A stretch of 64,000 bases of DNA, from contig DASRBN010000002.1 in assembly GCA_035653615.1 (NCBI GenBank), forward strand, positions 1 through 64,000, in the 5' to 3' direction. The notes under the pieces were generated by a model, which saw only the letters and a program-made list of their open reading frames with translations, was not told the origin of the DNA and searched no databases. The DNA is from Ktedonobacteraceae bacterium. GTDB taxonomy: Bacteria; Chloroflexota; Ktedonobacteria; Ktedonobacterales; Ktedonobacteraceae. Below, piece after piece: positions 14,171-25,141 of this stretch (within the stretch, counting starts at the first letter, position 1; each line of letters opens with the position of its first letter). The translations under genes were made by a program, and so were the position numbers.

Positions 14171-15019
14171 TTACCTTTTCCGTTCGCGGCGCTGGTTGTA
14201 GCGCTGCTGCTGGCGATACTCCTGGTAGAGGTCATCATCGACGCCTTTCACTCCCTGCTTCATTGCTGGTGGCTGATTCCTGATACTTCCAGGTTCAGAA
14301 GTACTCTTTGTCTGAACTGTTTTGCGCTGTGCTGACTGCTGACCACTCAACCCCGCCAGGTTGCGGGGGATGAGGTCGAAGCGCGCCAGAACGATTAAGA
14401 CGACGATCAACGTCAACAGGAAAAGGACTGTTGACAGGTTAACGGGAAATGACCCGATCGAGAAAAGCGTATAATTCATTTTATTCACGGTCAGGTAATT
14501 CGTCTCAAATGTGCCGATGAAATCGGCAATAATCAGGTACAGGAGCATGCCGAAGAGGTATTTCATCTTGAATGCCCCTGCCGGACGAGTGGGCGCGCTG
14601 CGAACCGCGGCGCTTCTGGCCGGCGCGCTTTTAACAGGCGCACTGGCAGCCGGCTGCTTGCTCTCTTTTGCTTGTACCGCTGTTTTCCCGGCTGTGGCGC
14701 GCGCGAGACGAGCCTGAGCAGGGTTCACTTCCGGTTTCTCCGTAGTCTTGCCGACCGTGGAAAAGAATTTCGGCAGGCGACGAGAGGGTGCAGTGACAGT
14801 CTTTGTTTCCTCGACTGCCTGGTTCGTAGTCCCGGTGTCGCTATCGCCACCGGACGAGATCAGCTCTTCCTGCGCTTTTTTATCATCTTCCGGTTCGGCG
14901 AGCGAATCGGGCGTTGCAGTGACGAGAACCGGGCGATTGCGGTTCGCGCGGCTGCGCCTGGCCGAACTGGATTTTCCGGCTGCATTCCCTCCTGGCCCCG
15001 AACCTGGTGCTTGTGTCAT
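14171..15019 (-). CDS. Hypothetical membrane protein (disordered Ala/Pro/Lys-rich N-terminus, two TM helices, basic tail)
   Basis: ORF with two clear TM segments (YLFGMLLYLIIADFIGTF; TVLFLLTLIVVLIVLARF). Stop overlaps the upstream gene start (ATGA). No recognisable domain. Confidence 0.45.
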   Translation of the reverse strand: MTQAPGSGPGGNAAGKSSSARRSRANRNRPVLVTATPDSLAEPEDDKKAQEELISSGGDSDTGTTNQAVEETKTVTAPSRRLPKFFSTVGKTTEKPEVNPAQARLARATAGKTAVQAKESKQPAASAPVKSAPARSAAVRSAPTRPAGAFKMKYLFGMLLYLIIADFIGTFETNYLTVNKMNYTLFSIGSFPVNLSTVLFLLTLIVVLIVLARFDLIPRNLAGLSGQQSAQRKTVQTKSTSEPGSIRNQPPAMKQGVKGVDDDLYQEYRQQQRYNQRRERKR

Positions 15020-16671: not shown

Positions 16672-17853
16672 TCAGGATAAGCGAGAGCGCGCAGCCTTCC
16701 ATTTTTCGCGCTGGTCTTCACGCACCTTCTCTGAGGTGGGGACATACTGCGCTAAAAAGGTGTCGCGAAATTCGGGGAACGTTCCGGCCAGGATGCTGGC
16801 GCGAATCTCACCCGCCAGGCGCAACATGAAGCGGATATTATGGATGCTCCCCAATCGATAATACAATTGCTCCTCAGCCCTGGCAAGGTGATGCACGTAT
16901 GCCGCGCTGTAATTGCGACAGGTGTAGCAATCGCAGCCCTCTTCGACCGGGCCATGCTGGGCCGAGAAGCGCGACGCCTTGATATTGACACGTCCCTGGC
17001 GCGTGAAGAGGCCGCCGTGACGGGCAACCCGCGTGGGCAGGACGCAATCGAACATATCCATACCGAGGCTGACCCCCATCACCAGGTCTTCAGGAGAACC
17101 CACGCCTAACAAATGGCGTGGCTTGTCCCGTGGCAATTCGGGAGTCACGCAGCCCAATAATTCCCACATTTCGGCCTTGGGTTCGCCGACCGATAGCCCG
17201 CCAATGGAGAGGCCACGAAACGGCAGATTGCCGATGTAGTGGGCGCTTTGCCGCCGCAGTTCTGGATCGAAGGCGCCCTGCACAATGCCGAACAGCGTTT
17301 GCTCCGGTCGATACTGTTCCTTAGCAACCAGCGCGCGCTCGGCCCAGCGATGCGTCATCTCCATCGCATCTCGCGCCGCTTCGCGAGAACAAGGATAGGG
17401 CGCGCAGATATCCAGCGGCAGGATGATGTCCGCGCCAAGCTCGGACTCGATCTGCATCACGCTCTCCGGCGTCAGCATATGGGCGGAGCCATCCAGGTGT
17501 GATTTGAAAGCGGCCCCTTCCTCGCTCAATTTGCGCAGGTGCCCCAGGCTGAATACCTGGAAGCCGCCGCTATCGGTCAGAATAGGCCCATCCCAATGCA
17601 TAAAAGTGTGCAGGCCACCAAATTCGGCGATCAAGCGCGAGCCGGGGCGCAGCATCAGGTGATAGGTATTGGCGAGAATAATCTGCGCGCCCGCCTCGCG
17701 CAACTCCTCGGGTGAGACGCTCTTCACACTGGCCTGCGTCCCGACGGGCATAAAGATAGGCGTCGAAATCGTGCCGTGGGGCGTCTGGATGGTTCCCGCG
17801 CGCGCCCAGCTTGCAGGACATTCGGCGTCAATGGTGAATGAAAACGTTGGCAT
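16672..17853 (-). CDS. tgt: Queuine tRNA-ribosyltransferase
   Basis: FSFTIDAE...ARAGTIQTPHGTISTPIFMPVGTQASVK. Zinc site CDCYTCRNYSAAYVHHL. Start re-placed at MPTFSF (about 17852–17853, ±1 nt). Confidence 0.9.
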   Translation of the reverse strand: MPTFSFTIDAECPASWARAGTIQTPHGTISTPIFMPVGTQASVKSVSPEELREAGAQIILANTYHLMLRPGSRLIAEFGGLHTFMHWDGPILTDSGGFQVFSLGHLRKLSEEGAAFKSHLDGSAHMLTPESVMQIESELGADIILPLDICAPYPCSREAARDAMEMTHRWAERALVAKEQYRPEQTLFGIVQGAFDPELRRQSAHYIGNLPFRGLSIGGLSVGEPKAEMWELLGCVTPELPRDKPRHLLGVGSPEDLVMGVSLGMDMFDCVLPTRVARHGGLFTRQGRVNIKASRFSAQHGPVEEGCDCYTCRNYSAAYVHHLARAEEQLYYRLGSIHNIRFMLRLAGEIRASILAGTFPEFRDTFLAQYVPTSEKVREDQREKWKAARSRLS

Positions 17854-18267
17854 GCATTCCTCAACAATTAGAAAACAGGTATATAGTACAATTGTCTCAT
17901 ATGCGTCAAGCCGCCTGGGGTGACCCATAGTAGCTCCAGAGCGTATCCTTGCATTCACCCTGGTAGAGCCTTCAAGAGCGCTTCTCTAGAGGGCCAGGGA
18001 GCGAAATAACCATACGAATGCAGGCTTGCATGTAAAGAATACACATAAAAATTCCATAAAAATTCAGAATTTAACGAGAAATCTCTTGCAAACTGGCAAT
18101 GAATCGTGTATGCTCTTTTGCGGTATCTATCCGATCTCGGTCTGGCATATAGTGATCTTCCAGCACATCCGGTCCCGCGCTGCTTGGGGTGACAGACAAA
18201 CTGGTGACATCCGCCAGGATATGGACGACCCGGAGGAATACCAACATATCACTAAGGAGGTCCCTAG

Positions 18268-18579
18268 TTGAATTTCGTTGACAAAACCCTGAAGTGCCGT
18301 GAATGCGGAAATGATTTCGTTTTCACAGCGGGCGAACAAGAGTTTTACTCACAAAAAGGGTTGATGAACCAACCCGGTCGTTGTCCCTCATGCCGCGCGG
18401 CGCGCCGCAGCTCGTCTGGCAGCATGGGAGGCGGTCGCTCCGAGCGCGGCCCACGCGAAATGCACACGGTGATTTGCGCCGAGTGCGGCGTTGAGACGCA
18501 GGTTCCATTCTTGCCCAAGAATGATCGACCCGTGTATTGCAGCACCTGCTACGATAAAATTCGCGTCGCACGCAATTAG
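18268..18579 (+). CDS. Double zinc-ribbon domain protein (two CxxC-x17-21-CxxC units with Ser/Gly/Arg linker)
   Basis: KCRECGNDFVFTAGEQEFYSQKGLMNQPGRCPSCR and ICAECGVETQVPFLPKNDRPVYCSTCYDK. TTG start 8 nt after an AAGGAGG RBS. Candidate promoter TTGCAA-17-TATGCT at about 18097–18125. Confidence 0.6.
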   Translation: MNFVDKTLKCRECGNDFVFTAGEQEFYSQKGLMNQPGRCPSCRAARRSSSGSMGGGRSERGPREMHTVICAECGVETQVPFLPKNDRPVYCSTCYDKIRVARN

Positions 18580-18688
18580 TAGCCTGCGAATTCATCGAGC
18601 TTGTGCGGCCAATATTTGTTGGGCCGGCCCGCATTCGACGTTTTGACCGGATGAGGGTTGTTCCAGGCTTGCCTGGAAGTAAAGCAAG

Positions 18689-18737
18689 AGACAAGGCCAG
18701 GGCAGCTTCGTGGCCTCGTCCCTTTTTTATTTTTGGC
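18689..18737 (+). terminator. Putative intrinsic terminator of the zinc-ribbon gene
   Basis: An imperfect GC-rich stem (gacaaggcc...ggcctcgtc) is followed by ccctttttta ttttt. Confidence 0.5.
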
Positions 18738-19060
18738 GCGGCTCATACGTCTATTCATGTAGAATAAAGCCGGCCAGGGATTTGTTGTAATTATCAGATA
18801 CATTTACGCTATTATATCTATTCATTTGTATTATCATTAGTAGCGCCCTATATTGGTAAGTACCGGCCTCCAGGTGTTCGTAATGCTGCTGCTTCCCACT
18901 TGCATTGCATTACAAATTCCTCACATTACCGGCGGCCTGTTACATTATCTGCTAGCTGAACGTAAAATACTACAATAGCAAATACTTTACATGTTTATTG
19001 CAATGAACATAGCATTGTTCTAAACTATGTACGAGGAGCTTGTGGGAGACCCTCAGAGGG

Positions 19061-21421
19061 ATGTATATGATGACCACGAACCCTGATGAATTCCTGGCGC
19101 TTCCGCAGATGACGCTTGAGCATCTGCTGGAGGAAACGCGCCAATACCTCTCTCCAGAAGAAATGGAGAGAATTCAGCGTGCCTACGAGGTCGCGAACCT
19201 GGCACATAGGGGTGTCGTGCGTCGTTCTGGCGATCCTTACATTCAACATCCACTCGAGGTTGCGCTCCTGCTGGCCGATATGCGCATCGATGCCGATGGC
19301 ATCGTGGCCGCGCTGCTGCACGATGTCGTCGAGGATACAGATTTCACACTGGAGGAACTGCGCCAGCAATTTGGGGAGTCCGTTGCCAACATCGTGGACG
19401 GCGTCACAAAATTTGATGCGCTGGCAAGCAAACCCGCGCCCAGCACAAAGTTCGTGGCTCCTGATAACCAGGAGGGAACGGGCAGGAAGACCATCAGCGG
19501 CCCTCTGCCGGAGACGCCCGAGCAGGTGGAGCAAAGACAAAAGCAGGCGCGTGAGTTGAAACGGCGCCAGCGTTCTGAGACGGTACGCAAAATGCTGCTG
19601 GCAATGGCCGAGGATCCCCGCGTGGTGGTGCTGAAGCTGGCCGACCGCCTGCACAACATGCGCACATTGAGCGTCATGAACCCTGCCCAGCAACAGAATA
19701 AGGCCCGCGAGACGCGAGAAATCTACGCGCCCCTGGCGAGGCGGCTGGGGATGGCCTTAGTACAGGCAGAACTCGAAGACCTGGCTTTCAGCTACCTGGA
19801 GCCTGAGCGCTACGCGCAACTGGCGCGTGCCGTGGAAGCGGAGAGGCGCAAGCGCCAACCCTCAATCGATCAGATTTGCCAGGTATTGCGAGAGGAGATG
19901 GAGAAGGCCGACATTCACGCCGAGGTGCATGCCTGGCAAAAACACCTGTCCAGTATCGAGCGCAAACTGCAACAGAGTGGGGATGAATTGAGCCAGATTC
20001 ATGACCTCGTCTCTTTCCGCATCCTTGTTGACTCCGTCCAGGATTGCTATCTTGCGCTGGGACTCATTCACGCCCTGTGGCGGCCAAAGGATGGGCGCAT
20101 CAAAGATTTCATCGCCACTCCCAAGCTGAATGGCTACCAATCGCTGCACACGACGGTCTTCTGCCTGGACAACCAGCTGGCAGAGATCCAGATTCGCACG
20201 CATGAAATGCAGCGTATCGCGGACTATGGCATCGCGAGTTACTGGTATCTCAAGGACCGCGGTGGATCAAGGCTCTCAACCCATGAAATGATCGCCTGGA
20301 TTGAGCAACTGCGCGAGTGGCAGCGTGGCCTGCCGCAGAACGCGGACGAGTTTGTGGAAGCAGTCAAGGGAGATATCTTCCAGGAGCAGATTTTCGTCTT
20401 TACCCCCAAGGGCGAGATCAAAGACCTGCCGCGCGGCTCGACTCCGCTCGACATGGCGTATCGCATTCACACTGATATTGGCGACCACTGCGCGGGCGCG
20501 CGCATCATTACCACTCAAGATGATGGCGGGCGCCTGGTGACACGCATCGTGCCGCTGGATTATGAACTCAAGGGCGGGGAGATCGTCGATATTATTACAG
20601 ACGAGGCGGTGCATCCGACGCGCGAATGGCTCAACTTCGCGCGGACGGCCAGCGCGCGCACGAAAATTCGCCGGTACTTGAATACATACGAGCGAGAAGT
20701 TAACCTGCAACTGGGCCGCGAGCGTCTTGACCTGGCACTCAAGGCCGCTGGCGTATCCGGGCTGCGGGTCGTGCGCGACGAAGACCTGTCTCGCTTCAAT
20801 ACGAATAAGAAGTACACGACAGCCGATGACCTGTATGTGGCACTTGGGCGAGAGGACCTGCCAGTAGGGGCGGTGCTTGAGCATTTGACACCGCTCTTAC
20901 AGGACCGGGGCGAGATGAAGCAGGAGACGGAGCCGGTTAAAAATGGGCACCATACCAACGGCAACAATGGGAACGGTGAAGTACCGCAGGCTGTTGTCAG
21001 GCTCGCCAACTGCTGCTGCCCGCTGCCCGGCGACGCGATTATCGGATTCCTCAATCCCAATAAAGGAATCATCGTCCATCGCAGCGACTGCCGGACGCTG
21101 CGCCGCCTGCGAGTGCAGGAGAGCGAGCGATTTGTTGAGATCAACTGGCTGCAGATCGAAGCCGGGCATTACCTGGCGCCGATCATCATTATCGCGCATG
21201 ATCGCCCCGGCCTTTTACGCGATGTCGCGGCAGTTGTCTCTGACGCAGGTATCAACATGACCGCCGTTTCATCGACGACCAATGCCTCGCTGCAAAAGGC
21301 CGTCATCACGGCGACACTGGAGATAGAGAGCGTCGATCAGATCGAGCCGATCTTTGAACGATTGCAGCAGATTAAAAATGTGGTGAGTGTGGCGCGGAAT
21401 TTTGCCCGCCGCGCTGCTTAG
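19061..21421 (+). CDS. rel: Bifunctional (p)ppGpp synthetase/hydrolase, long RSH with intact HD domain
   Basis: HD motif HRGVVRRSGDPYIQHPLEVALLLADMRIDADGIVAALLHDVVEDT. Synthetase motifs DLVSFRILV...GYQSLHTTV...EIQIRTHEMQRIADYGIASYWYLK. TGS and C-terminal ACT domains (CCCPLPGD..., RNFARRAA end). Start is uncertain: TTG 19040, or ATG 19061/19067/19070 after an AGAGGGA RBS. Confidence 0.9.
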   Translation: MYMMTTNPDEFLALPQMTLEHLLEETRQYLSPEEMERIQRAYEVANLAHRGVVRRSGDPYIQHPLEVALLLADMRIDADGIVAALLHDVVEDTDFTLEELRQQFGESVANIVDGVTKFDALASKPAPSTKFVAPDNQEGTGRKTISGPLPETPEQVEQRQKQARELKRRQRSETVRKMLLAMAEDPRVVVLKLADRLHNMRTLSVMNPAQQQNKARETREIYAPLARRLGMALVQAELEDLAFSYLEPERYAQLARAVEAERRKRQPSIDQICQVLREEMEKADIHAEVHAWQKHLSSIERKLQQSGDELSQIHDLVSFRILVDSVQDCYLALGLIHALWRPKDGRIKDFIATPKLNGYQSLHTTVFCLDNQLAEIQIRTHEMQRIADYGIASYWYLKDRGGSRLSTHEMIAWIEQLREWQRGLPQNADEFVEAVKGDIFQEQIFVFTPKGEIKDLPRGSTPLDMAYRIHTDIGDHCAGARIITTQDDGGRLVTRIVPLDYELKGGEIVDIITDEAVHPTREWLNFARTASARTKIRRYLNTYEREVNLQLGRERLDLALKAAGVSGLRVVRDEDLSRFNTNKKYTTADDLYVALGREDLPVGAVLEHLTPLLQDRGEMKQETEPVKNGHHTNGNNGNGEVPQAVVRLANCCCPLPGDAIIGFLNPNKGIIVHRSDCRTLRRLRVQESERFVEINWLQIEAGHYLAPIIIIAHDRPGLLRDVAAVVSDAGINMTAVSSTTNASLQKAVITATLEIESVDQIEPIFERLQQIKNVVSVARNFARRAA

Positions 21422-21449
21422 TAAAGTCAGCAACACGCATTTACTGGAA

Positions 21450-23882
21450 ATGCTTATGATAGATATGTCTATAAAGAACCAGGCGAGGCCAAAAAAGGTC
21501 TCTAGCGAGCCAGCGGCTCAATTACTGAATACCGTACAGGAATATATGCCGGCTTCCGAAGTGGAACTGGTGCGCCACGCGCTTCAACTCGCGCGGGAGA
21601 CCTGTGGCGATGCGCGCGGCGAACGCACGCTCCCGCCGTTCGAATACGCGCTGGCAGTGGCGACGATTCTCGCCGAGATACATATCGATGCCGTGGGTGT
21701 CGCTTCCGGCCTGGTATTTGAGGCCGTCGACGCCGATCTTCTTCCCCTCGAGCGTGTAGAAGTGGAACTCGGCGTCCCTGTAGCGCGCGTGGTAGGAAGC
21801 ATGCTGCGTATGAATATCCTGGAGCGCACCAAGCAAACGGTGGCGCAGGTAGCCCAGTCACCAGCACAGGCGGAAAGCGAGAATACCCGCGAGCAAAAGA
21901 AGCAGCGCATCCGTGAGGCGCTGCGCCGCCAGCAAGCCGAAACGGTGCGCAAAATGTTCTTCGCCATGTCGGAAGACCCGCGCGTTGTTCTGCTCAAACT
22001 GGCCTACCGCCTGCATGTGATGCGCCTGATCTGCGCCCATCAATATCCCGCGGATCACCAGGAGATCATCTCCACGGCGCGAGAATCGCGTGAGATCTAT
22101 GCTCCCCTGGCCGGTCGTTTAGGCATGTCGCGCGTGGAAAGCGAACTGGATGACCTGGCATTTCAGATTCTGGAGCCTGAGCAATACGTCTGGGTGCGTG
22201 ACCAGGTAGAGGCCGAAAGCAAGCAGTGGCGCTCCTATGTAGACCGCGTCTGCACAATCCTGCGTGATGAAATGCAGAAGCTGGGTTTGAGAGCGGAAGT
22301 ATCGGGGCGCGTGAAGCACCTGTATAGTTTCTATAAGAAGCTGCAACGTAACGCGGGCAACGTCGAACACTTCGAGGTCTTGAAAGCATCCGCCGATTTC
22401 AGCCAGATTCATGACCTGATTGCATTTCGTATTCTGGTGGAGACGACGCCCGATTGCTACATCGCGCTGGGTCACGTGCATAGTCTATGGCGGCCCAAAG
22501 AGGGGCGCATCAAAGATTTCATCGCCAACCCCAAGCCAAACGGCTACCAGGCGCTGCATACGACGGTCTTCTGCCTGGACGACCACCTGGTAGAGATTCA
22601 GATTCGCACTTTTGCCATGCATGAAATGGCCGAATACGGCGTGGCGATGCACTGGCATTACAAGGACGTGGGCGATAGAGCATCCAGTTCGGCGAAAGAA
22701 CTGCTGGCCTGGTTGCGGCAATTGGCCGAATGGCAGCGCGAACTGCACTCGTCAACGGCGACCGATGCTGAATTCGTCGAGGCCGTCAAGGAAGAGATTT
22801 TCCAGGAGCAGATCTTTGTGTTCACACCGCGCGGCGAGGTCAAGGACCTGCCGGTTGGCTCGACGCCGGTCGATTTCGCCTATCGCGTTCACTCCGAGAT
22901 TGGCGACCACTGTTCCGGGGCGCGCATTATCACGGAGAGCGGCAGCGGCGACGGCGAACGCCTCGTCACGCGCATGGTGCCGCTGGACTACGAGCTGCGC
23001 AGCGGCGAGATTGTGGACATCGTGACGAGCCGCACCGCACACCCCACGCGTGACTGGCTGAATTTCGCCCGCACCGCGGCAGCGCGCAGCAAGATACGGC
23101 GCTACCTGAAAATTCACGAGCGGGACATCAATATCCAGATCGGACGCGAGCGCCTGGACCGTGAATTGAAATCGCGCGGTATCCCACGCGGTATCGACGC
23201 GATCACCGAAGATGCGCAACTCTGGCTGGCCAAAGAGTACGGCAAGGAAACGCTCGAGGATGTGCTGGCGGCGCTGGGTAGCGACGAGATGCGGCCACAT
23301 GGCATCGTCGTGAAACTGCAGGAGTTCTGGCAACAGCGCGAACCACGCGAAAGCAAAGAGCAGAAAGAAGAGGTGGAGCCGGTCGCGCTGCCTGCCGCAT
23401 CTAAAGCGGCTCCCACCGCACGCTTGCAGGTCGCGGGCGTCAGTGGATTGCTGACCAGCCTGGCGAACTGCTGCTGCCCGCTGCCTGGGGATGAAATCGT
23501 TGGCTTCATCAGCCGGGGCAAGGGGGCAATTATTCACCGCGCCGACTGCAAGAATATCGAGCGCTATCGCGAACGCGACCGCGAGCGCCTGGTGAACGTG
23601 AACTGGACCAATATGGGCTACCAGCGCTATCTGGCCCCAATACTGATTACGGCCCGCGACCGTGCGGGACTGATACGCGACATCGCTACAGTGGTAACCG
23701 AGATCGGCGTGAATATAACCTCGGTCAGTTCAAACGTGAGCGCAGGCAAAGAGACCGCTCTTATCAACGCCACGCTCGAAGTGGACGGTTTGGATCAGAT
23801 GTACCGCGTGTTCGCTAAATTGGAACGGGTCAGGGGAGTGATACACGTGGAGAGGGACCTGGGAAAAGGGAAGAAGAAATAA
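21450..23882 (+). CDS. RelA-like long RSH paralogue with degenerate (pseudo) HD hydrolase domain, synthetase motifs intact
   Basis: The HD-region equivalent is LARETCGDARGERTLPPFEYALAVATILAEIHIDAVGVASGLVFEAVDADL. Compared with the first paralogue, HR becomes RE, H becomes F, and HD becomes FE. Synthetase motifs are conserved (DLIAFRILVE...GYQALHTTV...EIQIRTFAMHEMAEYGVAMHWHYK). TGS and ACT domains are present. Start is one of the ATGs at 21450, 21456 or 21465. Confidence 0.85.
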   Translation: MLMIDMSIKNQARPKKVSSEPAAQLLNTVQEYMPASEVELVRHALQLARETCGDARGERTLPPFEYALAVATILAEIHIDAVGVASGLVFEAVDADLLPLERVEVELGVPVARVVGSMLRMNILERTKQTVAQVAQSPAQAESENTREQKKQRIREALRRQQAETVRKMFFAMSEDPRVVLLKLAYRLHVMRLICAHQYPADHQEIISTARESREIYAPLAGRLGMSRVESELDDLAFQILEPEQYVWVRDQVEAESKQWRSYVDRVCTILRDEMQKLGLRAEVSGRVKHLYSFYKKLQRNAGNVEHFEVLKASADFSQIHDLIAFRILVETTPDCYIALGHVHSLWRPKEGRIKDFIANPKPNGYQALHTTVFCLDDHLVEIQIRTFAMHEMAEYGVAMHWHYKDVGDRASSSAKELLAWLRQLAEWQRELHSSTATDAEFVEAVKEEIFQEQIFVFTPRGEVKDLPVGSTPVDFAYRVHSEIGDHCSGARIITESGSGDGERLVTRMVPLDYELRSGEIVDIVTSRTAHPTRDWLNFARTAAARSKIRRYLKIHERDINIQIGRERLDRELKSRGIPRGIDAITEDAQLWLAKEYGKETLEDVLAALGSDEMRPHGIVVKLQEFWQQREPRESKEQKEEVEPVALPAASKAAPTARLQVAGVSGLLTSLANCCCPLPGDEIVGFISRGKGAIIHRADCKNIERYRERDRERLVNVNWTNMGYQRYLAPILITARDRAGLIRDIATVVTEIGVNITSVSSNVSAGKETALINATLEVDGLDQMYRVFAKLERVRGVIHVERDLGKGKKK

Positions 23883-23915
23883 AAATCGGGGGCAATCCGG
23901 TTGCCCCCGATTTTT
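23881..23915. terminator. Bidirectional intrinsic terminator (15-bp perfect stem) between convergent relA-like and sigma-factor genes
   Basis: aaaaatcgggggcaa-tccgg-ttgcccccgattttt. A tracts lie 5' and T tracts 3'. Confidence 0.75.
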
Positions 23916-23923
23916 TTATAGTA

Positions 23924-25141
<1,218 letters not shown>

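Follow-up and report, generated by a model that had tools for sequence, protein, structure and literature searches.

Tandem long RelA/SpoT homologues of Ktedonobacteria with a degenerate hydrolase in one copy and an altered synthetase in the other

The locus

A 64,000-nucleotide stretch of DNA from Ktedonobacteraceae bacterium (GenBank assembly GCA_035653615.1, contig DASRBN010000002.1, positions 1 to 64,000; the whole stretch is referred to here as the window) carries three plus-strand genes between a divergent queuine tRNA-ribosyltransferase (TGT) gene and a convergent sigma-70 gene. The first encodes a zinc-ribbon protein, and the other two, Rel1 and Rel2, are full-length long RelA/SpoT homologues (RSHs), of the enzyme family that synthesises and degrades the starvation signal (p)ppGpp, arranged head-to-tail and sharing 45% identity across ~795 residues. 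Both open reading frames (ORFs) match the Pfam domains HD_4, RelA_SpoT, TGS, RelA_AH_RIS and ACT_4, and both pass the long-RSH model TIGR00691, which has a cut-off of 499.2 bits (657.7 bits for Rel1 and 546.7 bits for Rel2). A preliminary description of the locus had placed a tandem full-length pair 28 bp apart, downstream of a double zinc-ribbon gene, and the Pfam domains and coordinates confirm that layout. A tblastn search found no further RSH genes in the window. The two genes and their catalytic motifs are as follows.

19061..21421, plus strand: Rel1, long RSH, 786 amino acids (aa) from ATG 19061, probable start ATG 19067 (Pfam domains, TIGR00691)
19205-19252 and 19313-19339, plus strand: Rel1 hydrolase motifs HRGVVRRSGDPYIQHP and LLHDVVEDT, canonical in 14/14 orthologues and ~90 clusters
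19634..19666, plus strand: Rel1 motif KLADRLHNMRT, carrying the fourth metal-binding Asp and the Asn (alignment)
19928..19966, plus strand: Rel1 altered ATP-binding motif HAWQKHLSSIERK, sGRxKHxYSIyxK in other long RSHs (G251 to A, R252 to W)
20219..20254, plus strand: Rel1 motif ADYGIASYWYLK, AExGvAAHWxYK in other long RSHs (E348 to D, H354 to Y, Y357 to L)
21450..23882, plus strand: Rel2, long RSH, 810 aa; pseudo-hydrolase domain, synthetase site canonical throughout (Pfam, alignment)
21603-21650, 21711-21737 and 21996-22028, plus strand: Rel2 degenerate hydrolase motifs CGDARGERTLPPFEYA, LVFEAVDAD and KLAYRLHVMRL (alignment)
22302..22664, plus strand: Rel2 synthetase core, comprising SGRVKHLYSFYKK, HDLIAFR, RIKD, NGYQALHT, EIQIRT and AEYGVAMHWHYK (16/16 sites canonical)

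The start of Rel1 is probably ATG 19067, since the N-termini of its orthologues read MM(T/A)xNP, and the start of Rel2 is ATG 21450 or 21456, as judged from orthologue N-termini of the form M(L)MI(D/N).

Catalytic sites of the two copies

The states of seven hydrolase sites (E. coli SpoT H48, H72, D73, E76, D77, D139 and N143) and 16 synthetase sites (in E. coli RelA, G251, R252, K254, S258, K262, D275, R280, Y319, H323, E335, Q337, E348, H354, W355, Y357 and K358) were read by alignment with both E. coli enzymes (RelA and SpoT) and ~140 further long RSHs, the sites of the HD (hydrolase) domain being taken from an alignment of 178 sequences. The resulting strings of residues, with the synthetase domain abbreviated SYNTH, are given below.

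Canonical / E. coli SpoT: HD HHDEDDN; SYNTH GRKSKDRYHEQEHWYK
Rel1: HD HHDEDDN; SYNTH AWKSKDRYHEQDYWLK
Rel2: HD (Y/H)FEDAY(V/A/T); SYNTH GRKSKDRYHEQEHWYK

In the case of Rel2, HD is replaced by FE, ED by DA, D by Y and N by V or A in all 14 orthologues examined, leaving a canonical residue at no more than one of the seven hydrolase sites. At the first metal-binding position, Rel2 of this genome has Tyr, but 13 of the 14 orthologues retain His. The derived residues (H/Y, F, E, D, A, Y and A/V/T) recur in more than 70 clusters, including those of Thermosporothrix, Thermogemmatispora and Ktedonosporobacter. The claim that the HD ligands of the second copy had been replaced is therefore right in substance, although the residue mapping first proposed, HR to RE and H to F, was slightly off. 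The alignment places derived residues at the ligand sites, which points to a dead hydrolase. The synthetase motifs were correctly described as conserved, with all 16 checked residues canonical. Loss of the hydrolase residues combined with a 16/16 synthetase site is the RelA-type [hS] pattern.

A second feature peculiar to Rel2 is an insertion of ~12 aa in the synthetase domain, located within 22350-22406 (residues ~301-319) between the phosphate-binding helix that bears the K262 equivalent and the strand of the catalytic Asp. The segment from K262 to D275 spans 22-26 residues in Rel2 versus 12 in 134 of 145 other sequences. The insertion is present in all Ktedonobacteraceae Rel2 proteins and absent from Rel1 and from the L053- and L058-type copies described below. 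Both copies of the window keep the TGS residue H432 and the zinc-finger residues C612, C613, P615, H634 and C638.

Rel2 orthologues are publicly named 'bifunctional (p)ppGpp synthetase/guanosine-3',5'-bis(diphosphate) 3'-pyrophosphohydrolase' or '3'-pyrophosphohydrolase', as for QBD81153.1 of Ktedonosporobacter rubrisoli. These proteins lack every hydrolase ligand checked bar one His, and naming them as hydrolases is likely an over-annotation. The labelling of Rel2 orthologues as bifunctional is an annotation problem to which the present finding draws attention.

Rel1 presents the opposite picture. Its hydrolase (H..HP, HD, ED, D..N) is canonical at 7/7 sites in all 14 orthologues examined, in keeping with the expectation that the first copy retains H...HD...D. 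Its synthetase is canonical at only 11 of 16 sites, such that Rel1 lacks the full site set of a bifunctional Rel[HS]. The designation 'intact Rel' therefore does not stand, as five of the 16 synthetase residues are replaced and the replacements, among them an adenine-stacking Arg that has become Trp, are fixed across the clade. Across ~90 clusters G251 is replaced by Ala (or another residue), R252 by Trp, E348 by Asp, H354 by Tyr, and Y357 by Leu or Met, all at positions that are otherwise 95-99% invariant among 141 long RSHs. For instance, the R252 equivalent is Arg in 99% of the 141 other long RSHs and Trp in 13 of 14 Rel1 orthologues and in all ~90 clusters, and position 251 is never Gly in Rel1. 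A G251E change reportedly inactivates E. coli RelA. Taken with the loss of the hydrolase in Rel2, the synthetase replacements of Rel1 make the split look reciprocal.

R252 in RelA numbering corresponds to RelTt R249 and SaRelP Arg78, two residues that make contact with, or stack against, the adenine of the donor ATP (PMC9974481, PMC5794853). Residues with published structural roles include RelTt R249, R277, Y329, D272 and Q347 (PMC9974481) and SaRelP Arg78, Arg112 and His190 (PMC5794853). When Rel1 is compared with the residues that define the [Hs] type in SpoT_Ab (PMC9974481), the R249 equivalent alone is lost, and the equivalents of R277, Y329, D272 and Q347 are kept.

Distribution in Ktedonobacteria

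Rel1 is directly followed by Rel2 in every locus with enough upstream sequence among the 33 species-level Ktedonobacteraceae loci recovered, most of which also have the TGT, zinc-ribbon and sigma neighbours. The closest genome contig belongs to a Ktedonobacteraceae metagenome-assembled genome (MAG) and is 95% identical at the protein level. Among cultured strains, Thermosporothrix hazakensis (BIFX01000001.1) has the order TGT, zinc ribbon, Rel1 (793 aa), Rel2 (815 aa) and sigma, and Thermogemmatispora carboxidivorans (JNIM01000001.1) has TGT, zinc ribbon, Rel1 (876 aa) and Rel2 (865 aa). Further records are of the Rel2 type (Ktedonosporobacter rubrisoli, Thermosporothrix sp. COM3) or of the Rel1 type (Thermogemmatispora argillosa). 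The reciprocal site pattern is identical in the window, T. carboxidivorans and T. hazakensis, and the derived states are found again in 14 orthologue pairs from Ktedonobacteraceae, in over 70 clusters of Rel2 and in ~90 of Rel1. The occurrence of the same pair in cultured strains of two orders and in Ktedonobacteraceae argues that it is old and stable in the class Ktedonobacteria and no oddity of the present genome.

An expanded loop shared by both copies

Both copies have an expanded loop between helices alpha6 and alpha7 of the HD domain.

19418..19585, plus strand: Rel1 expanded alpha6-alpha7 loop, 61 aa in the window
21816-21947, plus strand: Rel2 expanded loop (alignment)

The loop measures 43-68 residues in Rel1 and 44-64 in Rel2, whereas its most common length among 141 other long RSHs is 20, and in Rel1 it is fast-evolving, with a ratio of nonsynonymous to synonymous substitution rates (dN/dS) of 0.39. 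It lies between the GV.K and E..RKM motifs, at the position of the alpha6-alpha7 loop whose length differs systematically among SpoT[Hs], Rel and RelA (PMC9974481). The unduplicated Rel proteins discussed in the next section have a loop of 66-71 residues, and hence the expansion predates the duplication. An insertion shared by both copies and older than their duplication had been proposed; its existence and its age are borne out, but its site is inside the HD domain and not between the HD and synthetase domains.

Origin of the pair

In a scan of 1.84 billion representative proteins, the nearest relatives of Rel2 outside its own family were Rel1-type and unduplicated RSHs of the Ktedonobacteria type. 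Neighbour-joining (NJ) trees unite Rel1, Rel2 and these relatives in a single clade, outside which fall E. coli RelA and SpoT and 140 other long RSHs, with bootstrap values of 100 for all columns, 95 for the synthetase plus C-terminal domains, and 72 with more taxa. Within the clade the topology is poorly resolved, and the NJ trees gave no order of events.

The unduplicated loci (L056/L057 and L059; 31 protein clusters) share a layout of TGT on the minus strand, zinc ribbon on the plus strand, one Rel, and a convergent RsgA gene on the minus strand. Their Rel is canonical at all 23 sites (7 HD and 16 synthetase), and shares 54-60% identity with Rel1 and 50-57% with Rel2, as against 45-48% between Rel1 and Rel2. 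A Rel of this type has the look expected of an unduplicated, slowly evolving counterpart. Two further kinds of tandem pair, from lineages of higher GC (58-69%), were found in L053/L055 (upstream, or A, copies of 695 and 684 aa) and in L058 (A copy of 740 aa).

L056, 3820-9320, and L059, 2700-8603: unduplicated loci, metagenomic or MAG
L053, 296-4839; L055, 4883-9406; and L058, 3786-8553: parallel tandem pairs

In both kinds of pair the upstream copy has a canonical HD domain. In its synthetase, L053/L055 have E335 replaced by D, Q337 by H, R280 by T or Q, and GR by PH, while L058 has E335 replaced by Q, Q337 by H and H354 by Y. These residue losses are of the [Hs] type, and the synthetase of the upstream copies is predicted to be dead. 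The downstream copies have a degenerate HD domain and a canonical synthetase, and each of the three downstream families has its own set of replacements at the HD ligands. The two L058 genes share an 8-bp overlap and are followed, 2 kb downstream, by a Ppx-GppA gene. A lone, very divergent long RSH of the hS type, with no HD_4 Pfam hit and no adjacent partner, was also observed at the P0236 locus (JGI 3300047160), where it clusters loosely with the Rel2-like group; its contig carries a Cas12f1-like_TNB (PF07282) gene.

The number of duplications was assessed with a home-made likelihood calculation (610 ungapped columns from 16 taxa, under a BLOSUM62-derived matrix with gamma rates). A scenario of three independent duplications was rejected, with a log-likelihood (lnL) difference of about -90. 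A single duplication, yielding 'A' and 'B' clades, is preferred by 14-30 lnL by the HD columns, the synthetase columns and all columns together. The 250 C-terminal-domain columns prefer a grouping of Rel1, Rel2 and the unduplicated Rel, with single-duplication trees 15-24 lnL worse. This conflict between the catalytic and C-terminal regions could be explained by long-branch and heterotachy effects, or by gene conversion between the tandem C-terminal domains. Thus, the RelA/SpoT-like split may have arisen once or twice within this Chloroflexota group, the C-terminal trees favouring twice and the catalytic-domain trees once.

The split is independent of the proteobacterial one, and most simply the product of a local tandem duplication, because the proteins form a separate clade, miss the equivalog cut-offs, keep the RXKD motif, and have an unduplicated canonical relative in the same genomic context. 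Rel2 scores 483.4 bits on the RelA equivalog NF008124 (cut-off 728) and Rel1 scores 555.2 bits on the SpoT equivalog NF008303 (cut-off 947). The preliminary description had likewise proposed a local duplication separate from the proteobacterial relA/spoT split, and the exclusion of E. coli RelA and SpoT from the clade, the failure on the RelA model and the retained RXKD all support it.

Division of labour and alternative explanations

From the observed sequence states, conservation, synteny and clade membership, a scheme of enzyme activities, co-transcription and regulatory roles may be proposed. An ancestral bifunctional Rel would have stood between the zinc-ribbon gene and rsgA, as it does in the unduplicated loci. 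A tandem duplication on the way to the class Ktedonobacteria would then have produced two copies, between which the work was divided. Rel2 would have given up the Mn ligands and catalytic residues of its hydrolase while keeping the domain as a regulatory pseudo-HD; having retained the C-terminal domains that sense the ribosome and tRNA (the TGS His, the zinc-finger Cys/His and ACT/RRM), it would be a dedicated, probably ribosome-activated, RelA-like (p)ppGpp synthetase. Rel1 would be the cell's long-RSH (p)ppGpp hydrolase. Its donor pocket appears remodelled, with the adenine-stacking Arg changed to Trp, His to Tyr, Tyr to Leu or Met, and Glu to Asp, such that its synthetase is probably weak or off, as in SpoT. 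A single transcript for both genes would fix the Rel1:Rel2 ratio.

Pairwise Nei-Gojobori estimates of dN/dS, which are rough because dS is saturated (~1.5), are 0.06 for the HD domain of Rel1, 0.12 for the pseudo-HD of Rel2, 0.07 for the synthetase of Rel1 and 0.08 for that of Rel2, indicating purifying selection on each domain of both proteins. The pseudo-HD of Rel2 is kept under constraint, like the regulatory pseudo-HD of RelA.

The interpretation that best accounts for these observations is a lineage-specific tandem duplication followed by reciprocal specialisation, and the residues of the two active sites make it probable that Rel1 is hydrolase-biased and Rel2 synthetase-only. In support, the same polarity is carried to completion in the L053/L055 and L058 pairs. 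Several observations weigh against it. Throughout the ~90 clusters the catalytic residues D275, E335 and Q337 of Rel1 are unchanged, as are the guanine-stacking Y319 and the entire G-loop motif; this retention, together with the synthetase dN/dS of ~0.07, would fit a working, altered synthetase at least equally well. Trp is still able to stack on adenine, and Tyr is still able to form a hydrogen bond. H354 probably matches the ribose-binding SaRelP His190, a correspondence drawn from motif order, and the saturation of dS makes the rate ratios an imprecise guide. The gap between Rel1 and Rel2, moreover, is wider in two cultured genera, at 384 bp (Thermosporothrix) and 495 bp (Thermogemmatispora). 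A related explanation is that the Rel1 synthetase has been remodelled and is not decaying, and would use another pyrophosphate donor, or make another product, alongside normal hydrolysis. The same Trp, Asp, Tyr and Leu/Met replace four donor-pocket residues in ~90 clusters and two orders, with the catalytic Asp, Glu and Gln and the acceptor G-loop invariant, a pattern that would fit this explanation; it is nevertheless regarded as improbable.

In line with the 'intact Rel' of the preliminary description, Rel1 might instead be fully bifunctional, its substitutions neutral, with Rel2 an extra dedicated synthetase in an asymmetric arrangement like E. coli SpoT[HS]/RelA[hS]. Rel1 does retain D275, Y319, E335 and Q337, and also the second adenine-stacking Arg (R280), H323 and the RXKD motif; constraint on its synthetase equals that on Rel2 (0.07 versus 0.08), and the changes of Arg to Trp and His to Tyr are conservative for stacking and hydrogen bonding. 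However, the replaced positions are 95-99% invariant in the 141 long RSHs, which include the weakly active E. coli SpoT, the Gly at position 251 is consistently lost, and the same or neighbouring positions are changed in the dead upstream copies of L053/L055 and L058, leaving full bifunctionality a doubtful explanation, if one to be taken seriously. Acquisition of Rel2 by horizontal transfer, with the gene landing beside a resident rel, could be read into the mere 45% identity of the two proteins and the poorly resolved NJ topology within the clade. This origin is very improbable and was rejected, given that the nearest relatives of Rel2 outside its family are Rel1 and the unduplicated Rel, that the expanded HD loop is found in both copies, and that base composition is equal over both genes; the tandem order is also kept across two orders. 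Finally, one copy might be a decaying pseudogene, a condition under which the preliminary account would fail for the second copy, or a non-enzymatic scaffold with no alarmone role, as the frames of Rel1 and/or Rel2 are broken in L021, L023, L029 and L038. Three of these four loci (L023, L029 and L038) are long-read MAG contigs, and the TGT gene is also split in L023 and the sigma gene in L038, so that assembly indel errors are likelier than true pseudogenes. Some 30 other species, and the cultured strains too, have intact copies of both genes, the Rel2 orthologues are 61-95% identical, dN/dS is well below 1, and the derived residues are fixed; the second copy is not a pseudogene, and loss of function in either copy, the least credible of the alternatives, was rejected.

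Comparison with known systems

Among the closest known parallels to Rel1 and Rel2 is the RelA/SpoT pair of E. coli, found in Beta- and Gammaproteobacteria, where a duplicated Rel has likewise given one synthetase-only copy with a pseudo-HD and one hydrolase-competent copy, and where TGS, zinc-finger and ACT/RRM are kept in both copies, as they are here. Of the two copies, Rel2 has the better score with the RelA model and Rel1 with the SpoT model, although neither reaches the cut-off. The differences extend to gene order, as E. coli relA and spoT are unlinked whereas Rel1 and Rel2 are adjacent and of independent origin; Rel2 falls outside the proteobacterial RelA clade and groups with Rel1 (bootstrap 100 / 95). 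The RXKD site reads RIKD in Rel2, EFDD in E. coli RelA and RVKD in SpoT. Replacement of RXKD by EXDD is a charge reversal that Sajish and colleagues are said to have described, in 2007, for monofunctional synthetases. The HD-ligand replacements also differ (FE/DA/Y in Rel2 versus FP/DA/E in E. coli RelA), and Rel2 has the extra ~12-aa synthetase insertion relative to E. coli RelA.

Reciprocal specialisation has also been described for the RelA[hS]/SpoT[Hs] pair of Moraxellaceae, where SpoT of Acinetobacter baumannii (PDB 7QPR) has lost the adenine-contacting Arg equivalent to RelTt R249 (PMC9974481). The upstream copies of L053/L055 and L058, with the catalytic Glu and Gln lost, match the Moraxellaceae idea of a pseudo-synthetase. 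With its catalytic Asp, Glu and Gln and its guanine-stacking Tyr still in place, Rel1 is intermediate, unlike the clear pseudo-synthetase of SpoT[Hs]; its alpha6-alpha7 loop is 61 aa long, whereas that of SpoT[Hs] is short (PMC9974481). Among bifunctional Rel proteins (Rel_Seq, 1VJ7; Rel_Tt, 6S2T; B. subtilis Rel, 6YXA/6HTQ) the architecture is the same, but neither window copy is canonical at both sites, whereas the unduplicated Rel of L056 and L059 resembles bifunctional Rel in being canonical at all checked HD and synthetase sites.

Lineage-specific second long RSHs have been reported as RshA in Actinobacteria, RshB in Bacteroidia, RshC in Bacilli and RshD in Deltaproteobacteria (Atkinson et al. 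2011, PMC3153485). These are divergent second Rel copies nested within the Rel of their own phylum, and the HD domain of RshB has diverged in a RelA-like manner; neither a tandem layout nor a reciprocal change in the first copy is described for RshA-D in that survey (PMC3153485). The 2011 census recorded only a single Rel in Chloroflexi and did not sample Ktedonobacteria (PMC3153485), and the 2020 update counts 13 long-RSH subfamilies (PMC7229694). A literature search for Ktedonobacteria with ppGpp or the stringent response found no paper treating these genes. Rel1/Rel2 is thus an undescribed and independent version of the RelA/SpoT theme, belonging to a kind of system already known.

Subfunctionalisation in alarmone metabolism has its textbook example in the RelA/SpoT split, which is essentially one historical event plus the Moraxellaceae step. 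The Ktedonobacteria, a class of soil bacteria, provide an independent replicate in which the genes are still adjacent and an unduplicated canonical relative occupies the same genomic context. With the sister lineages included, the hydrolase copy is seen at an intermediate and at a fully synthetase-dead stage, forming a graded series. Carriers that are cultured and sequenced (Thermosporothrix hazakensis, Thermogemmatispora carboxidivorans and Ktedonosporobacter rubrisoli) make ideas on how residues and disordered loops tune the balance of hydrolysis and synthesis (PMC9974481) testable.

Transcription units and neighbouring genes

The remaining features of the locus are listed below.

16672..17958, minus strand: queuine tRNA-ribosyltransferase (TGT) gene (PF01702, E = 6.5e-154)
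18268..18579, plus strand: zinc-ribbon gene, 103 aa, two treble-clef domains, CxxC-x17-CxxC (PF13451 1.6e-23, PF23477 1.1e-19, TIGR04272)
18676..18736, plus strand: intrinsic-terminator-like hairpin and U-tract at the end of the zinc-ribbon transcription unit (-22.7 kcal/mol, z = -3.17, 0/200 shuffles as good)
18986..19026, plus strand: Rel1 promoter-like sites TTTACA-18-TAGCAT and TTGCAA-17-TAAACT (consensus match), ~40 nt before the Rel1 start
21422..21449, plus strand: Rel1-Rel2 spacer, 28 bp (28-34 bp depending on the Rel2 start)
23881..23915, no strand assigned: perfect palindromic hairpin with a 15-pair stem and A-/T-run flanks, between the Rel2 and sigma-70 stop codons (scan)
23924..25141, minus strand: sigma-70 family gene, 405 aa, acidic N-terminal extension, convergent (Pfam regions 1.2, 2, 3 and 4)

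A sequence scan found no hairpin and no terminator-like or promoter-like site between Rel1 and Rel2. Because the 28-bp gap lacks a terminator, the two genes are probably co-transcribed in this genome, from a promoter just upstream of Rel1. Elsewhere the arrangement ranges from the 8-bp overlap of L058 and a 5-bp gap in L053 to ~37-165 bp in most Ktedonobacteraceae, and given the 384-495 bp gaps of the two cultured genera, co-transcription is no conserved rule. The operon that had been proposed is therefore plausible for this genome but not conserved across genera. The palindrome at 23881-23915 looks like a bidirectional terminator common to Rel2 and the convergent sigma-70 gene.

The 480-bp spacer before Rel1 has a GC content of 0.45, against ~0.57 in the flanks. 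It had been described as an AT-rich leader of the pair, and its composition was accurately noted, but in place of a transcribed leader it holds a terminator, a spacer and a promoter. The stem and T-run of the terminator are conserved with paired changes over 18 loci (a simple terminator scan skipped this hairpin, the loop being longer than 8 nt), as are the TTGCA and TA.AC blocks in the 18-locus alignment, and the spacer can be aligned across loci only at the terminator and promoter-like blocks. A regulatory RNA in the spacer was considered and rejected on this pattern of conservation, there being no Rfam match at gathering score and no tRNA anywhere in the window.

The zinc-ribbon gene starts with TTG, preceded by an AAGGAGG Shine-Dalgarno sequence. 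Because it ends in its own terminator, co-transcription with the pair is unlikely, and its membership of a Rel operon was rejected on the conservation of that terminator and on its variable distance or absence: the distance to Rel1 ranges from 223 bp to 2.5 kb, and the gene was not found within ~5.5 kb upstream in six Ktedonobacteraceae loci. It is located upstream of Rel in duplicated and unduplicated loci alike; its adjacency to Rel is older than the duplication, and it is treated here as a conserved neighbour. The upstream position of TGT is conserved in the Ktedonobacteraceae loci, Thermogemmatispora, Thermosporothrix and the unduplicated loci L056 and L059, and the sigma-70 gene has the same downstream position in most Ktedonobacteraceae loci and in Thermosporothrix. 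Further upstream in the window (14171-15019, minus strand), an ORF of 282 aa without a Pfam match has an Ala/Pro/Ser/Lys-rich, low-complexity N-terminal half and predicted membrane helices.

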